A stretch of DNA of 10,851 bases. Source: Candidatus Hermodarchaeota archaeon (GTDB lineage Archaea > Asgardarchaeota > Thorarchaeia > Thorarchaeales > Thorarchaeaceae). Positions within the stretch are counted from its first letter, which is position 1. Each line of letters starts with the position of its first letter. The stretch is taken from contig JBHLLF010000014.1 of assembly GCA_048885865.1 (NCBI GenBank), positions 66,502 to 77,352 on the forward strand. Direction: 5' to 3'. Of this stretch, positions 631-10,331 are shown piece after piece. A model generated the notes under the pieces. It saw nothing but the letters and a program-made list of their open reading frames with translations, was not told the origin of the DNA and ran no database searches. Position numbers and translations under genes: made by a program.

Positions 631-1260
631 ATGAATCCAGTTGAGAAAGCATCCGTATCAGCTAACACATTGACAGAAACTTTCACGGCAACTACTAGCA
701 ATGGAATAACCATCCGAAAAGTCCTCATTGCAGGCTCCGGAGCAGTAGGCAAGACAAGCCTTGTCAAGGTCATGAAACACAATCTACCCCTCTGCGGAAT
801 CGAGGAGGACACCACTGCGTATCACAGAACACCCTTTGTTGAACTGGAAACCGTGAGGATCAAACGGTCTGCGAAGGAAGGTGTGTTTCAGATGGTGGAT
901 GTGTCTGGGCAGCTCGACTCGGTCATTCACCCGCTCAGAGACATCTCAAGGGTTGCGATGGGGAGTGTCAGTGTGGTCCTGCTCATGTTCTCGAGCAACA
1001 ACATCCAGTCATTGCTGGATCTCTCTCAATGGATTGTAACGTTGACGGATTATTACTCGAATATTCGTTCTAAGAACATGCCGGACTTTGTGCTTCTGAA
1101 GAACAAGGCAGACCTGAGCGACGACATTGACCAGACGCTCATAGATGCGGTGATGAATTGCAATCCGAGGATCTGTAAGTACCATGAACTCAGCTGTCTA
1201 ACGGGAGAAGGAGTGAAGGAGATGATAGAATGGCTGGTCACCAGATACATGATGATGTAA
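631..1260 (+). CDS. Ras/Rab-superfamily small GTPase, copy 1 (209 aa)
   Basis: G1 KVLIAGSGAVGKTS, G2 YHRT, G3 DVSGQ, G4 NKAD, G5 ELSCLTGEGV; Ras-like size and motif order; no C-terminal Cys lipidation motif. Confidence 0.92.
   Translation: MNPVEKASVSANTLTETFTATTSNGITIRKVLIAGSGAVGKTSLVKVMKHNLPLCGIEEDTTAYHRTPFVELETVRIKRSAKEGVFQMVDVSGQLDSVIHPLRDISRVAMGSVSVVLLMFSSNNIQSLLDLSQWIVTLTDYYSNIRSKNMPDFVLLKNKADLSDDIDQTLIDAVMNCNPRICKYHELSCLTGEGVKEMIEWLVTRYMMM
1218..1226 (+). promoter_or_regulatory. Shine-Dalgarno-like site inside the GTPase coding sequence, serving partner gene 1
   Basis: GGAGATGAT (8/9 match to GGAGGTGAT) ends 3 nt before ATG 1230; identical at 2851-2859. Confidence 0.65.
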
Positions 1261-1976
1261 GAAGCAGGCTAGAAAAGCAGACGACTCTGCTCAGAGGACA
1301 GTTTCGATGTCAAATATGCAATGATACCCTTTCTGTTGACCCCGAGGATGAGAAGACCTATCTCTCAAAGACCGAACATGAAGAGGTCTTTGGCATGCAG
1401 CTTGTGACCTATCGCGTCGAACACGCAACAGAAGACGAACGCCACTTCAACACCGTAATCCTCGATCATGAGGGCTACTATCGTGGACATCGTGACTCCT
1501 ACGCTGAACAGATCCGACCCAAGGCCCAGCCCCGCATAGACCAATACACCACTATATTTCGGGAAGTTCCCACTCTTTCTGAGCATCAACTTGTCAACTT
1601 GGCATTCATTACTGATAGGCGTGAGGAATGGGTCTTAGAGGTAGTGAATCCCGGAGGAGTCAATATTCGTGAGTTATCATTTATGGCTGTTGGCCTACTT
1701 GAAGAAGCAGAGAAGGTCTGCGAGTCTTTGCCTGGGCCACTAACAGAAAAAATAGCAGACCGCGAGATTGCAATCTGGTCAATCGACTCGAAACTCCTCT
1801 GTGTAGAAGCTAAGTCTAGTAGGGCAATTGCACTGATGGACAGATTTGCTACCTTGTTGCAGGACTCGCAACAATACTCGCGCGTTCCCAGCAAACACAT
1901 GATCACTCTTGCAATGAAGTTGATTGATGAGAACCCAGACTTTCTATTCACCCCTGATCTGGTATTTCACTTCTGA
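1230..1976 (+). CDS. GTPase-partner protein copy 1 (248 aa): putative Zn-binding N-domain + predicted longin-like domain
   Basis: Paralog at 2863-3606 (~73% identical by manual alignment) supports coding. CQIC (C27/C30), H65 and H72 are conserved. Residues ~122-236 show a beta-beta-alpha-beta-beta-beta-alpha-alpha pattern. CDS is secure; domain calls are inference. Confidence 0.85.
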   Translation: MAGHQIHDDVRSRLEKQTTLLRGQFRCQICNDTLSVDPEDEKTYLSKTEHEEVFGMQLVTYRVEHATEDERHFNTVILDHEGYYRGHRDSYAEQIRPKAQPRIDQYTTIFREVPTLSEHQLVNLAFITDRREEWVLEVVNPGGVNIRELSFMAVGLLEEAEKVCESLPGPLTEKIADREIAIWSIDSKLLCVEAKSSRAIALMDRFATLLQDSQQYSRVPSKHMITLAMKLIDENPDFLFTPDLVFHF

Positions 1977-2263: not shown

Positions 2264-2893
2264 ATGAATCCTGTGGAAAAGGCATCCCTCTCCGAAAACC
2301 CTTACGTACAGACCTACCCCGTGCACATTAAAGAGAAACTCGCTATCCGGAAAGTCCTCATCGCGGGCACCGGAGCAGTGGGGAAGACAAGTTTTGTCAG
2401 GGTCATGAAAAACAGGCTTCCCCTCTCCGTAATTGAGGATGACACAACCGCATATCGCAGAACACCCTTTGTTGAATTGGAGACCCTGAGAATCAAACGT
2501 TCTGATATGGACGGAGTGTTTCAGATGGTAGATGTGTCTGGGCAGCTCGACTCAGCAATTCACCCACTCAGAGACATCCCGAGGGTTGCCATGGGAGGTG
2601 TCAGTGTAGTCTTGCTCATGTTCTCAGGAGACAATGTTCAGTCATTGCTTGATCTCTCCGAATGGATAGAAACGCTGACTGACTACTACTCGAAGATTCG
2701 TTCTAAGAACATGCCGGACTTTGTGCTGTTGAAAAACAAGGCAGACCTGAGCGACGATATTGACCAGATGCTCATAGATGCAGTGATGAATTGCAATCCG
2801 AGAATCTGCAAGTACCATGAACTCAGCTGTCTGACAGGTGAAGGAGTCAAGGAGATGATGGAATGGCTGGTCGCCAGATACATGATGATATGA
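2264..2893 (+). CDS. Ras/Rab-superfamily small GTPase, copy 2 (209 aa; start corrected from 2108)
   Basis: MNPVEKAS start matches copy 1 and gives the same 630-bp length; AGGTGA RBS at 2251-2256; G1 GTGAVGKTS, G3 DVSGQ, G4 NKAD, G5 ELSCL. Confidence 0.92.
   Translation: MNPVEKASLSENPYVQTYPVHIKEKLAIRKVLIAGTGAVGKTSFVRVMKNRLPLSVIEDDTTAYRRTPFVELETLRIKRSDMDGVFQMVDVSGQLDSAIHPLRDIPRVAMGGVSVVLLMFSGDNVQSLLDLSEWIETLTDYYSKIRSKNMPDFVLLKNKADLSDDIDQMLIDAVMNCNPRICKYHELSCLTGEGVKEMMEWLVARYMMI
2851..2859 (+). promoter_or_regulatory. Embedded Shine-Dalgarno-like site for partner gene 2
   Basis: GGAGATGAT ends 3 nt before ATG 2863. Confidence 0.6.
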
Positions 2894-3606
2894 GAAGACT
2901 AAGAAAAGAAATGAGCCTGCTCAGAGGCCAGTTTCAGTGTCAGCTATGCAATGAAGCGCTGTCCGTGGACCCTGAGGATAAGAAGACCTTTCTCTCTAGG
3001 ACTGAACATGACGAAGTCTTTGGCATGCAGCTTGTGACCTATCGCGTGGCTCACACAGCAGGCGACGAACGCCACGTCAACACTATAATCCTCGACCATG
3101 ATGGCTTCTATCGTGGGCATCGTGACTCCTATTCTGAGAGGATACGACATGAGGACCATCCTGGCATAAACCACTACTTCACAATATTTCGAGAGGTCGC
3201 ACCCCTTTCCAAGCATAGACTTGTCAACCTGGCATTCATTGCTGACAGGCAAGAAAGATGGGTGTTGGAGATAGTGAATCCAGGAAGAGTCAAGATGCGT
3301 GATTTAGCACTCATGGCCGTTAACGTTGTTGAAGAAGCAGAGAGTGTCTGTGAGTCCTTGCCGGGCCCACTGACAGGGAAGATGTGGGACCGCGAGCTTG
3401 CAATCTGGTCTATTGGCTCGAGACTCCTTTGTGTGGAAGCAAAGTCTAGTAGGTCGATTGCACTGATGGATAGATTTGCCGACCTGTTGGAGAACTCTCA
3501 GCAATATTCCAGACTCCCCAATAAACACATGATCATTCTAGCAATGAGGTTGATCGATAGAGACCCAGACTTTCTATTTACACCTGATCTTGTATTTCAC
3601 TTCTGA
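2863..3606 (+). CDS. GTPase-partner protein copy 2 (247 aa): putative Zn-binding N-domain + predicted longin-like domain
   Basis: Paralog of 1230-1976; CQLC and His pair conserved. Alternative ATGs at 2890 and 2911 exist only in this copy. Confidence 0.85.
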   Translation: MAGRQIHDDMRRLRKEMSLLRGQFQCQLCNEALSVDPEDKKTFLSRTEHDEVFGMQLVTYRVAHTAGDERHVNTIILDHDGFYRGHRDSYSERIRHEDHPGINHYFTIFREVAPLSKHRLVNLAFIADRQERWVLEIVNPGRVKMRDLALMAVNVVEEAESVCESLPGPLTGKMWDRELAIWSIGSRLLCVEAKSSRSIALMDRFADLLENSQQYSRLPNKHMIILAMRLIDRDPDFLFTPDLVFHF

Positions 3607-3774
3607 ACCATGCAATACTTGTACCCACAATTCCGACCGAATGATTTTTGAAAAAGAAAGCTCAGCTACTTTGAGATTATTGATTTCAACAGACAATAGC
3701 TGATACGCCCTCAGCCTATGAACGCGCCACTTCTTGCATTTTTGATCAATCTCAACTTTGGAGGAGAGAAACAA

Positions 3775-5373
3775 ATGAATAAGAATGGAATACTAGTGGG
3801 TTTCTTGGTTCTAGTGCTTTTCTTGGGGACAACCATGCCCTTTGCAATCGCTACAGAAACACAAGAACAGGAAATAGAAGATGCGATTGTGGCCGGATTA
3901 AATTGGCTGGCGAATCACCAAGATGATGAAGGATACTGGGGATTTCCAGATAGAGTCGGGAAGACAGGTCTCGCTCTGTTGAAGTTTGAAGAGCGTGCAA
4001 AAGAGCTTGGCTATGATAGCCCATTTAATCCTGAATACATCTACTCAGAAAATGTCGAGAAGGGATTCCAATACATCTTCAGGAATGTGTACATGATGGA
4101 CACCGATGACCCTGACACAGAACCTGATGCTCTTTATATAATAGATTTCGAGGGATGGGCTAACTATGTGCACTATGTCTACGAGCATAGTATTGCAATG
4201 ATGGCAATAGCTGCAAGCGGCACCCCTGATCGTGTTGTGGATGTCACTGAGAGCCCTGTTTATGGGTGGACCTTTGAGGAGGTCATGCAGTTTGCCATCA
4301 ACTATCTGTTGTATTGCCAGAAGGATGAGGGCGGCTGGTCCTACTCAGCACCTGGTCAAAACATGAATTGGATGCCATCTGACAACTCCAATACCGGATA
4401 CGCTGTGCTTGCGATGACATATGCTCAGACAAGATTTGGGCTTTCTATTCCAGAGGGAGTCAAGGTAGCTCTTAGTGAGTTCATAGACTACATCCAGACT
4501 GATCCGGATGACGAATACTATGATGTGGGTGAAGAAGGCGGCTCTGGTTACAGAGATCCAGGGTTATGGGTGAACATCCTGAAAACGGGAAATCTGCTTT
4601 ATGAGATGGCTTTTGTGGGGGATACGATGGATTCAGAACGTGCCCAAGCTGCTTTAGATTTCATAGAGCGGTACTGGGATGATCCGAACTGGAGTCCTGG
4701 CTGGAGAGGCCCGGGATGGGAGGGAGAACAGAATCCTGACTACCAAACGATGTACACTGCAATGAAAGGATTTCTGGCAATGGGGATAGAAGCAATCCTG
4801 GTGGGTGACATTGAGGTTGATTGGTTTGATGACTTCGTGACCGCAATCCTCGACACGCAGAATGAAGACGGCAGTTGGCCGTGGGATGAATGGGGAGATC
4901 CGTTTATCACTACATCTTGGGCACTACTCACACTAGAGAAGGCAGTCGAGATTCCCACCATTGAGGTCTCTATTGACATCAAGCCCGAGTCTTGGCCGAA
5001 TCCAATCAACATCTTGAGCCAAGGCAAGTTTGCAGTTGCCATCTGTGGTACCGAGGACTTCGATGTGCATGAGATTGATCCAGCGTCAATTTCAATCAGC
5101 ATCGATGGTGTGGAAGATAGCGTATATCCGCTTTTCTGGAGCTATCAGGATGTTGCTACTCCATACATCCTGGGCGATGGTGGCGGACACGAGGAGGGCA
5201 GTGACGGTTACATCGACTTGGTGCTGCACTTCTGGATTCCTGAGGTAGTCATCACACTCGACCTTGAGGACCATGCAGGAGAAACCGTATCTCTAATTGC
5301 TAGCGGCTATCTCAAAGAAGACTATGGCGGAACGCCGATTCATGGTGAAGACCTCGCTTGGATATTGACGTAG
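3775..5373 (+). CDS. Secreted prenyltransferase/squalene-hopene-cyclase-like alpha-alpha barrel protein with C-terminal beta-rich domain (532 aa; start corrected from 3718)
   Basis: GGAGG RBS at 3760-3764; signal peptide MNKNGILVGFLVLVLFLGTTMPFAIA; QW-type repeats WLANHQDDEGYW, YLLYCQKDEGGW, ILDTQNEDGSW; very acidic; C-terminal IDIKPESWPNPIN...DGYIDLVLHF module. Confidence 0.85.
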   Translation: MNKNGILVGFLVLVLFLGTTMPFAIATETQEQEIEDAIVAGLNWLANHQDDEGYWGFPDRVGKTGLALLKFEERAKELGYDSPFNPEYIYSENVEKGFQYIFRNVYMMDTDDPDTEPDALYIIDFEGWANYVHYVYEHSIAMMAIAASGTPDRVVDVTESPVYGWTFEEVMQFAINYLLYCQKDEGGWSYSAPGQNMNWMPSDNSNTGYAVLAMTYAQTRFGLSIPEGVKVALSEFIDYIQTDPDDEYYDVGEEGGSGYRDPGLWVNILKTGNLLYEMAFVGDTMDSERAQAALDFIERYWDDPNWSPGWRGPGWEGEQNPDYQTMYTAMKGFLAMGIEAILVGDIEVDWFDDFVTAILDTQNEDGSWPWDEWGDPFITTSWALLTLEKAVEIPTIEVSIDIKPESWPNPINILSQGKFAVAICGTEDFDVHEIDPASISISIDGVEDSVYPLFWSYQDVATPYILGDGGGHEEGSDGYIDLVLHFWIPEVVITLDLEDHAGETVSLIASGYLKEDYGGTPIHGEDLAWILT

Positions 5374-5474: not shown

Positions 5475-5744
5475 AAAAGGAGGACCGTGACTCTCTTCCA
5501 AGAACTCGACGAGTCTCGACACAAATCAGGTCGCTGGAGCGCTATCCACCACATCATGGTCGAGTGTCACGATCAGCTGAGGTCAGTAGTTAACATCTTG
5601 TGCAAAGATTCCTCGCATTCAGGAGTTGGCAGGGATTCAGGATACATTAATCCTCAGGCTGGATAATATACTGTCTTCAGAAAGAAAATAGGAGATGAGT
5701 TCCTAGCTCCTCTGTTCACACCTGATCTGGTATATCACTTCTGA
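5475..5744 (+). pseudogene. Probable decayed third copy of the GTPase-partner gene
   Basis: One frame reads ...VVNILCKDSSHSGVGRDSGYINPQAG*YTVFRKKIGDEFLAPLFTPDLVYHF*. The end matches partner LFTPDLVFHF*; RDS and YTVFR weakly echo RDSY and YxTIFR. Confidence 0.4.
5711..5744 (+). repeat. Third copy of the 34-bp partner-gene 3' end
   Basis: tctgttcacacctgatctggtatatcacttctga: 31/34 identical to 1943-1976 and 30/34 to 3573-3606. Confidence 0.9.
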
Positions 5745-5767
5745 GGATTTCTTCCCAACGTTAACCC

Positions 5768-6185: not shown

Positions 6186-7178
6186 TTGTGCAGCGACATC
6201 AATGAGAAAGACAATAGCGGCCTTCGCGTTGCTCTGGGACTGTCAATAGTGTTCGCGATTGCATTGACTTACCTGACACTGGAGATCTATCATCAGATCA
6301 ACATCATTCTGAAGGAGATAATACCCGACCATGGCGTCGGCGAAGCAGAAGCAGTCGCCCAGATAACAGAATCGTTGAGGCCCATTGGGTACATTGCGCT
6401 CACGCTAACTATGGCACTTATTCTCATAGGATTCATCCTGAAGAAACAGAAAGCAGTTCTAGCAGGCTCAATTGCATTATACTTGCCGGTCTTCGGACAC
6501 TTCGCACTCACAATGTTCTTTCTTGCAGGCATCGGGGTGGTCAGAGTTCTATGGCTTCCTTTGTTTGATATATCGGCAGGGCTCTTTGATCTGGGGGCTA
6601 TCGTCTGTCTGCCGATTCTTCCTCTGCGTCTGGCAGTAAGGGCCATCTGGATGCTGATGCCATTATTGTTCATTTTGCCCTTCATAATTCAGGGACTAGG
6701 ATTCATGATATTCCTCCTGAGTGCCATGAGTTGGTTCCAGGGGCGATTCAAAGACGTACGAATAGTTGACTTCTGGGCATATCGTTATTCTAGGCACCCT
6801 CAATACTTGGGCTTCATAGTTTGGAGCTATGGCCTTCTGATTCACGCCTTGGTGGCACCAATTCCTTTTGGAGGAATCTACTTCGTGCCGAGTCTGCCAT
6901 GGCTTCTCTCAATCATGTTGATTATTGGTGTTGCCCTGTATGAGGAGAGCAAAATGGTTCAGAAGAATGATGAGCAATATCTGGAATACCGCGCAAAGAC
7001 TCCTTTTCTAATACCACTTCCTGAATCCATATCTAACTTGATTACTGCCCCCATCAAGCTCGTCCTAAAGAAGGACTGGCCAGAAAATGGAAGAGAAATA
7101 GTGGTCACGGTGATTCTGTATTCGGTGATACTCATGCTTCTTTCAGTACCTCTGGCGCTACTTCCTCCTTTGATGTAG
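6186..7178 (+). CDS. Integral-membrane methyltransferase of the ICMT/PEMT/DUF1295 clan with N-terminal TM extension
   Basis: About 8 hydrophobic segments; signature AYRYSRHPQYLG, then EE..M and YLEYRAKTPFLIP. TTG start uncertain; AT-rich TATAAT at ~6148. Confidence 0.82.
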   Translation: MCSDINEKDNSGLRVALGLSIVFAIALTYLTLEIYHQINIILKEIIPDHGVGEAEAVAQITESLRPIGYIALTLTMALILIGFILKKQKAVLAGSIALYLPVFGHFALTMFFLAGIGVVRVLWLPLFDISAGLFDLGAIVCLPILPLRLAVRAIWMLMPLLFILPFIIQGLGFMIFLLSAMSWFQGRFKDVRIVDFWAYRYSRHPQYLGFIVWSYGLLIHALVAPIPFGGIYFVPSLPWLLSIMLIIGVALYEESKMVQKNDEQYLEYRAKTPFLIPLPESISNLITAPIKLVLKKDWPENGREIVVTVILYSVILMLLSVPLALLPPLM

Positions 7179-9518: not shown

Positions 9519-10331
9519 ATGGTCGATATCCAGAAAGCCTTGGAGTTTGTCAGGACAAGCAGTGACAATATACAGCAGGCCCGTCTTGATTCAATTTTGG
9601 AGAATACCCGCCCTGACAAAGATGTGCTAGATGCAATCGAGAGAATGAGAAAGTCGGGTGGAGGGTTTGCTTTCTGGGATAATGATGTGAGCAGCATAAC
9701 GACAACACTGAATGTTTTGGGATGGCTTGATGACCTTTCTATTCTGAACGGCCCCATTGTCGACAGGACCTTTGACTTTCTCTTGGACCATCAACGTGAA
9801 GATGGTGGGTGGGATGAGATTGAAGAGGTGGGAGAATTTGACCCGCCGCCCTTCATGATGCCGGGTGAAGTCAATACTCAGACCTGGCTGACTGCATGCT
9901 GTGCTCATTGGTTCATACGTTTTGGCCGCGCAGAACCACCAGGGTCAAAGGGTTGCCCCGCAGAGTTTCTGATGCAGCACATTCAACCTTCTGGACTAGT
10001 CAGAGGCTATCTCTACGCCAGCTGGGACGCCTTGGTGATGTTCAACTATCATCCAGGCACTGAGTCAGAGGTCTTCAAGAGGCTTTTAGAGGGAGTGGAA
10101 AAGAGATTCACGCCCGACGAACTTGATGGGACGGATCTGGCATGGTTGCTCCGATGCCTTAGGGATGCAAATCTCAGTGTTGATCATAAACTCGTGATCG
10201 GTGCCCTTGATGCTCTTGAGGAGAAACAAGGATTGGACGGTAGTTGGAGCTCTGCAGATGGACCAGAGTACTCAGGCATGGCCACCATTGATGCCATAAG
10301 AGTTATGAAAGACTTTCGAAGACTCCCATAG
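9519..10331 (+). CDS. Cytoplasmic prenyltransferase/squalene-cyclase-repeat protein (270 aa)
   Basis: QW-like repeats MRKSGGGF, FLLDHQREDGGW, FLMQHIQPSG, LEEKQGLDGSW; no signal peptide; GAGGG upstream. Confidence 0.82.
   Translation: MVDIQKALEFVRTSSDNIQQARLDSILENTRPDKDVLDAIERMRKSGGGFAFWDNDVSSITTTLNVLGWLDDLSILNGPIVDRTFDFLLDHQREDGGWDEIEEVGEFDPPPFMMPGEVNTQTWLTACCAHWFIRFGRAEPPGSKGCPAEFLMQHIQPSGLVRGYLYASWDALVMFNYHPGTESEVFKRLLEGVEKRFTPDELDGTDLAWLLRCLRDANLSVDHKLVIGALDALEEKQGLDGSWSSADGPEYSGMATIDAIRVMKDFRRLP

Follow-up and report, generated by a model that had tools for sequence, protein, structure and literature searches.

What kind of protein is encoded directly behind a small GTPase gene in an Asgard archaeon, and does it work with that GTPase? 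The question is raised by a 10,851-nucleotide stretch of the genome of a Candidatus Hermodarchaeota archaeon (assembly GCA_048885865.1, contig JBHLLF010000014.1, positions 66,502 to 77,352 of the forward strand), here called the window. In the window, the gene of a 248-residue partner protein, P0001, overlaps the 3' end of the gene of a Ras-like small GTPase, P0002, by 31 nt. Our results predict with high confidence that the C-terminal half of P0001 has a longin fold, and we consider it likely that residues 122-248 are the longin domain of an Asgard-specific adaptor head working with the upstream-encoded GTPase. The gene pair is laid out as follows.

631..1260, + strand: Ras-like small GTPase copy 1, P0002, 209 aa (Pfam Ras, 43.7 bits)
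1230..1976, + strand: partner gene copy 1, P0001, 248 aa (N-terminus conserved among homologues)
1296..1511, + strand: N-terminal all-beta domain of P0001, residues 23-94, with a putative Cys2His2 zinc site (C27, C30, H65, H72)
1593..1973, + strand: predicted longin-fold domain of P0001, residues 122-248 (strands b1-b5, helices a1-a3 and short terminal helices)

The P0001 gene is real, with homologues at 22-94% identity across Asgard genomes and a paralogue in the window; its close homologues are named Thorarchaeota in NCBI records. An exhaustive HMMER search of 1.84 billion representatives returned 77 relatives of P0001, and an alignment of 53 of them, at 22-94% identity, was the input for AlphaFold2. 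The resulting model has a mean predicted local distance difference test (pLDDT) score of 88, reaching 90-97 in the majority of 10-residue blocks within the C-terminal half, and the five models are concordant (pLDDT 83.5-88.3). On this model, DSSP assigns strands to residues 122-129, 134-139, 171-175, 178-185 and 188-194 and helices to residues 146-163, 197-213 and 222-234. The predicted order over residues 122-234 is therefore b-b-a-b-b-b-a-a, as in longin domains of ~120 residues. Also as in longins, the model has no helix in residues 95-121, before b1, and has a3 as a second C-terminal helix.

A sequence-only reading had previously drawn eight elements by eye (123-129, 134-139, 146-163, 171-176, 179-185, 189-194, 198-212 and 222-234), each of which agrees with the DSSP assignment within 1-2 residues. 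Its interpretation of these elements as a longin fold is supported by their order in the model and by the best structural matches. It had placed the domain at bases 1593-1937, which encode residues 122-236 of the 248-residue open reading frame. The start at residue 122 holds, but the end falls short: according to the structural alignments the domain continues to residue 248 (base 1973), and two short helices after a3 (236-240 and 242-245), together with a conserved terminal motif, belong to it.

A Foldseek search against the PDB gave weak E-values, with the Sec22b longin domain in first place (4.8e-3) and a list made up almost wholly of longin and roadblock proteins. In a search against 48,161 chains, the six best matches were all longin, and the best 50 rows, assigned to classes by reading entry titles, held ~37 longin, 12 roadblock and 1 GAF entries. 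The same order was obtained in a second ranking of the Foldseek top 1000 chains, the top 13 of which were all longin. The whole domain can be superposed on solved longin domains, with 124 residues at 2.7 Å on AP-3 sigma. An independent search of the ESM Atlas returned clusters with Clat_adaptor_s, Sybindin/Sedlin_N and Fuz_longin_1 matching residues 119-248 (template modelling score 0.59-0.65, normalised to the hit). The best matches are longin, not roadblock, PAS or unrelated folds.

The gene order ties the partner to its GTPase. Each of the 14 partner genes examined, from 12 loci (partner identity 29-75%), is immediately preceded on the same strand by a Ras-like GTPase gene, and the two genes often overlap. 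In P0025 (534 aa), GTPase and partner are fused into a single chain. The regulator gene thus keeps both its place beside a small GTPase gene and the orientation of that gene, as expected of a cognate pair with MglA-MglB-like operon logic. Since gene overlap, conserved order and fusion make binding likely, we take the GTPase and its partner as cognate. As a rule, Asgard GTPase genes do not share operons with longin or roadblock genes (PMC10933270), so that the matching of regulators to GTPases is obscure, whereas the P0001 family gives such pairs directly, and the gene pair in the window is a GTPase-longin couple defined by its genomic arrangement, a rarity for an Asgard archaeon. P0002 itself belongs to an Asgard-specific GTPase family; its G1, G3 (with Gln at the catalytic position) and G4 motifs are intact, and its closest relatives by sequence in the PDB are Rab27 and Rab9 (E ~1e-4).

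The P0001 family is confined to Asgard archaea; its profile was found in 58 of 301 sampled Asgard genomes. Its members join an invariant Cys2His2 beta domain (here the Zn-beta domain) to the longin domain, and a C-terminal tail usually follows. The length of most members is 305-323 residues, which includes an extra C-terminal segment of ~75 residues; the 248-residue form without this tail occurs in our genome and two related ones. The Zn-beta domain is the most conserved part of P0001, with long conserved motifs and four putative metal ligands, C27, C30, H65 and H72, whose invariance in 55 sequences is indicative of a zinc site. When folded by itself (pLDDT 87), the N-terminal domain found no convincing structural relative. 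Some relatives of ~610 aa (P0040, P0042, P0044, P0047, P0053 and others) carry ~300 extra N-terminal residues without a Pfam match. At locus L004, the neighbour is a divergently oriented 387-residue Arf/Rag-like GTPase instead of an upstream Ras-like one.

The tail is accompanied by a third gene. A gene for a ~350-residue class I S-adenosylmethionine (SAM) methyltransferase follows 8 of the 10 full-length partners with downstream DNA, plus one on a further contig, but none of the four truncated partners (window, L053 and L054). A search of our genome, which is 87% complete, for an orthologue of this methyltransferase gave only a generic 26-bit match. The truncated partners form one clade, and the joint loss of tail and methyltransferase is therefore a single evolutionary event and not a statistic. 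The genus of our genome has lost the C-terminal tail together with the methyltransferase gene, which suggests that the tail is the link to the enzyme. In the same genus, the two-gene unit was duplicated in tandem. Relatives in which a full-length partner is followed by the methyltransferase gene are found at L003, L018-L020, L022, L055 and L056.

Several results weigh against a longin domain that acts on the GTPase. Pfam has no family for P0001, for residues 116-248 alone or for 53 relatives at E-values up to 1-10, and the PDB sequences retrieved with the family profile were only designed repeat proteins and other noise. An hhalign comparison of the C-terminal domain with an ad hoc profile of 17 Asgard Fuz_longin_1 proteins, both profiles being too shallow for the outcome to count as a negative, gave a probability of ~1%. 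The sandwich that the sequence-only reading had demanded, with a1 on one face of a five-stranded antiparallel sheet and a2/a3 on the other, was derived from the superpositions. The predicted two-chain complex of GTPase and partner scored 0.37, compared with 0.00 for the best of three controls; at least 49% of contacts recur between runs, the partner has a pLDDT of at least 74, and the output gave no interface. In the calibration, 58 of 80 solved complexes attained the pass mark, as did 2 of 110 mismatched pairs, but passes scoring 0.60 or less comprised only 7 of the 80 solved complexes and both of the passing mismatches. The complex prediction thus passed only weakly and lends weak support to GTPase-partner binding. 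Finally, the same Zn-beta domain starts tetratricopeptide repeat (TPR) proteins of ~740 residues, with a small GTPase gene directly before them in 14 of 17 loci. No longin sequence was detected in these Zn-beta-TPR proteins, and an hhalign comparison of the P0001 C-terminal domain with their middle region was not significant. Since GTPase adjacency extends to them, the Zn-beta domain rather than the longin domain may be the GTPase-binding element.

This last point leads to the alternative in which the fold is longin, but the Zn-beta domain recognises the GTPase and the longin domain only dimerises or recruits a third component. The strong conservation of the Zn-beta domain and its metal ligands speaks for it, as do the TPR proteins. 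A diverged longin domain may nevertheless exist in the latter, as a structural alignment places 117 residues of one Atlas TPR cluster on model residues 119-237 at 3.8 Å and one TPR homologue matches the P0001 query up to residue 178. Moreover, the genus without tail and methyltransferase has retained the longin domain, and longin and roadblock domains are established GTPase platforms (PMC10933270). We regard recognition by the Zn-beta domain as rather unlikely, but either domain may make the main GTPase contact. The Zn-beta-TPR proteins give the impression of a further output architecture built on the same GTPase-reading head. Their loci are L058, L060-L071 and L073.

The domain could instead be of the roadblock/MglB type, having lost its N-terminal helix and serving the co-encoded GTPase as its GTPase-activating protein (GAP), in the way that MglB serves MglA. 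The Z-score gap between longin and roadblock matches is indeed small, and the common b-b-a-b-b-b-a core fits both classes equally. The discrimination thus rests on connectivity, namely the missing N-terminal helix before b1 and the two C-terminal helices after b5, and this helix connectivity also separates the two classes in PMC10933270. Longin alignments span model residues 120/121 to 237-248 and include both C-terminal helices and the tail end, whereas roadblock alignments stop at residues 212-220 (about 217). P0001 also lacks the hallmarks of Roadblock/LC7 (PF03259), an N-terminal helix followed by b-b-a-b-b-b and a profile match: the Robl_LC7 profile misses it, yet finds at least 13 other proteins over the cut-off in the same genome. 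An hhalign comparison of the C-terminal domain with 8 roadblock proteins from this genome gave a probability of 0.1%, again with shallow profiles. Together, these data make a roadblock domain improbable. A misleading model, with the domain in truth a different profilin-like alpha/beta fold of the GAF or PAS type that senses a small molecule, is hardly credible given five concordant models, ~49 of 50 best matches being longin or roadblock, the far fewer residues covered by GAF and the longin families returned by the Atlas search.

The preferred reading, a longin domain, has to account for the silence of the sequence searches. The curated cut-offs of Longin (PF13774), Fuz_longin_1 (PF19036), Clat_adaptor_s (PF01217), Sybindin (PF04099) and Sedlin_N (PF04628) were not reached, and neither partner copy in the window matches any Pfam family or PDB sequence. 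The domain has diverged in sequence beyond the reach of any family profile. Look-alikes proposed by a protein language model were only unnamed Asgard clusters and CpXC-like names, all scoring below 0.85 and serving as leads only. The Longin and Fuz_longin_1 profiles found no protein over their cut-offs in this genome; among sampled genomes, Fuz_longin_1 matched in 4 of 26 from the same taxonomic family, compared with 17 of 25 from another Asgard family. Sequence-based censuses thus undercount the longins of Thorarchaeota, as no Pfam longin exceeds its cut-off here, yet at least two copies of the domain are present.

The same genome encodes a 301-residue protein (contig 26, 21737-22642) with sub-threshold Longin, Fuz_longin_1 and Intu_longin_1 matches and TrmB-type and HTH_NPRL3-like winged-helix matches, which probably belongs to the NPRL2/3-like family reported for Thorarchaeota (10.1101/2020.10.19.343400). 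We considered whether the P0001 family is the published Thor family of an NPRL2-like longin with a small C-terminal domain, and rejected this assignment because the contig 26 protein fits it better.

How might the partner act on the GTPase? The family-wide conserved positions of the longin domain are W134 and E137 (b2), P141, E148 and E159 (the two ends of a1), Y/C164, P168, A176-D177 (the b3-b4 turn) and W183 (b4). The GAP longins of folliculin, SMCR8 and NPRL2 are marked by a GP motif and an arginine (PMC12290439). In P0001, no GP motif is present before or at the start of b2, where the b1-b2 loop reads D-R-R-E-E-W and a Pro-Gly pair follows b2. No arginine in the longin domain is conserved family-wide: R130 occurs in 11 of 12 close relatives and 30% of distant ones, and position 178 varies among R, H, K and L. 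A folliculin-type GAP was rejected on both grounds. With neither a family-wide arginine finger nor a GP motif, any effect on the nucleotide cycle would be of the guanine nucleotide exchange factor (GEF) type or the MglB type, in which the GTPase's own catalytic residues would be reshaped, and not of the folliculin/GATOR1 type. In our view, an adaptor/effector or GEF-like platform role is most likely, an MglB-like GAP role is possible and an arginine-finger GAP is unlikely.

In the model that we favour, drawn by analogy, the Zn-beta and longin head would bind the GTPase depending on its nucleotide state, and the longin domain would provide the GTPase platform and/or a dimer interface. The output in most relatives would be supplied by the C-terminal tail and the adjacent SAM methyltransferase, or by the TPR scaffold. 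It is tempting to speculate, though we do so tentatively, that the head is an undescribed Asgard-specific module that reads or regulates one Ras-like GTPase and has interchangeable outputs: tail plus methyltransferase, TPR scaffold, or none.

The window holds the GTPase-partner unit twice, in tandem, together with a fragment of a further partner gene.

2264..2893, + strand: Ras-like small GTPase copy 2, P0114, 209 aa (80% identical to copy 1)
2863..3606, + strand: partner gene copy 2, P0003, 247 aa (73% identical to copy 1)
3223..3603, + strand: putative longin-fold domain of partner copy 2, residues 121-247, by homology to copy 1 (76% domain identity)
5694..5745, + strand: relic of a partner gene, last 16 codons and stop (81%), upstream without an open frame

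The second partner gene, which starts 1.6 kb downstream of the first, overlaps its own GTPase gene by 31 nt, as in copy 1. Helix a1 (1668-1721 versus 3298-3351) is the least conserved element between the two paralogues, with 10 of 18 residues identical compared with 76% over the domain. This divergence would fit a specificity surface, although the numbers are small and the point is unproven; the tandem paralogues could be used to test how the specificity of the pairs is encoded. The fragment at 5694-5745 sits after an unrelated 551-residue gene, with in-frame stops upstream, and appears to be the relic of a third unit or a recombination scar.

Among the other genes of the window, the downstream ones at 3718-5373, 6186-7178 and 9519-10331 include weak matches to alpha-alpha toroid families of prenyltransferases and terpene cyclases (SQHop_cyclase_C, 26.2 and 22 bits) and one membrane protein that matches the isoprenylcysteine carboxyl methyltransferase and DUF1295 families. 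Such matches near GTPase genes are suggestive, yet neither GTPase has any C-terminal cysteine.

In eukaryotes, longin and roadblock platforms that act with small GTPases have a central part in membrane traffic and in nutrient signalling, and the Asgard versions of these platforms have been used in arguments on the origin of the eukaryotic machinery. Asgard longin domains are already known, one of them solved (8yqg), and the fold assignment thus extends a known kind. What appears to be new is the family itself, unnamed in the libraries searched, along with the combination of Zn-beta and longin domains, the strict pairing with a dedicated GTPase gene and the occurrence in Thorarchaeota. If the proposed module is correct, these would be the first genome-defined cognate GTPase-longin pairs in Asgard archaea and would give prokaryotes a counterpart to the longin platforms of eukaryotes, offering a two-gene unit for the study of one longin domain together with its GTPase.

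Among known systems, the C-terminal domain of P0001 can be likened to the coat-adaptor longins, that is, the small (sigma) adaptins, the N-terminal part of the medium (mu) adaptins and zeta/delta-COP. Near kin as longin-based Rab GEFs are Mon1-Ccz1, BLOC-3, CPLANE (Fuzzy-Inturned), TRAPP Bet5/Trs23 and the upstream longin of DENN; these are hetero-oligomers of several longin domains, whereas GEF activity and a dimer are putative for P0001. The SRX domain of signal recognition particle receptor alpha pairs with an unrelated GTPase, the Arf-like SR-beta, serves eukaryotic membrane targeting and has no Zn-beta domain. In MglA-MglB of Myxococcus and Thermus, MglB is connected like a roadblock domain, with an N-terminal helix but without a3, and is detectable with Robl_LC7, neither of which applies to P0001. 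The folliculin, SMCR8 and NPRL2 longins and their Asgard look-alikes differ from P0001 in the GP motif and arginine discussed above. The solved Asgard domains, a Lokiarchaeota longin (8yqg), a Thorarchaeota roadblock (7f8m) and the MK-D1 roadblocks (9jue and 7yh1), have no detectable sequence relationship to P0001, and longin homologues have been listed for Loki and Odin, not Thor (PMC10933270). In MK-D1, GTPase genes generally lie outside operons with longin or roadblock genes (PMC10933270); unlike those longin and roadblock genes, the P0001 family is always gene-linked to a GTPase.
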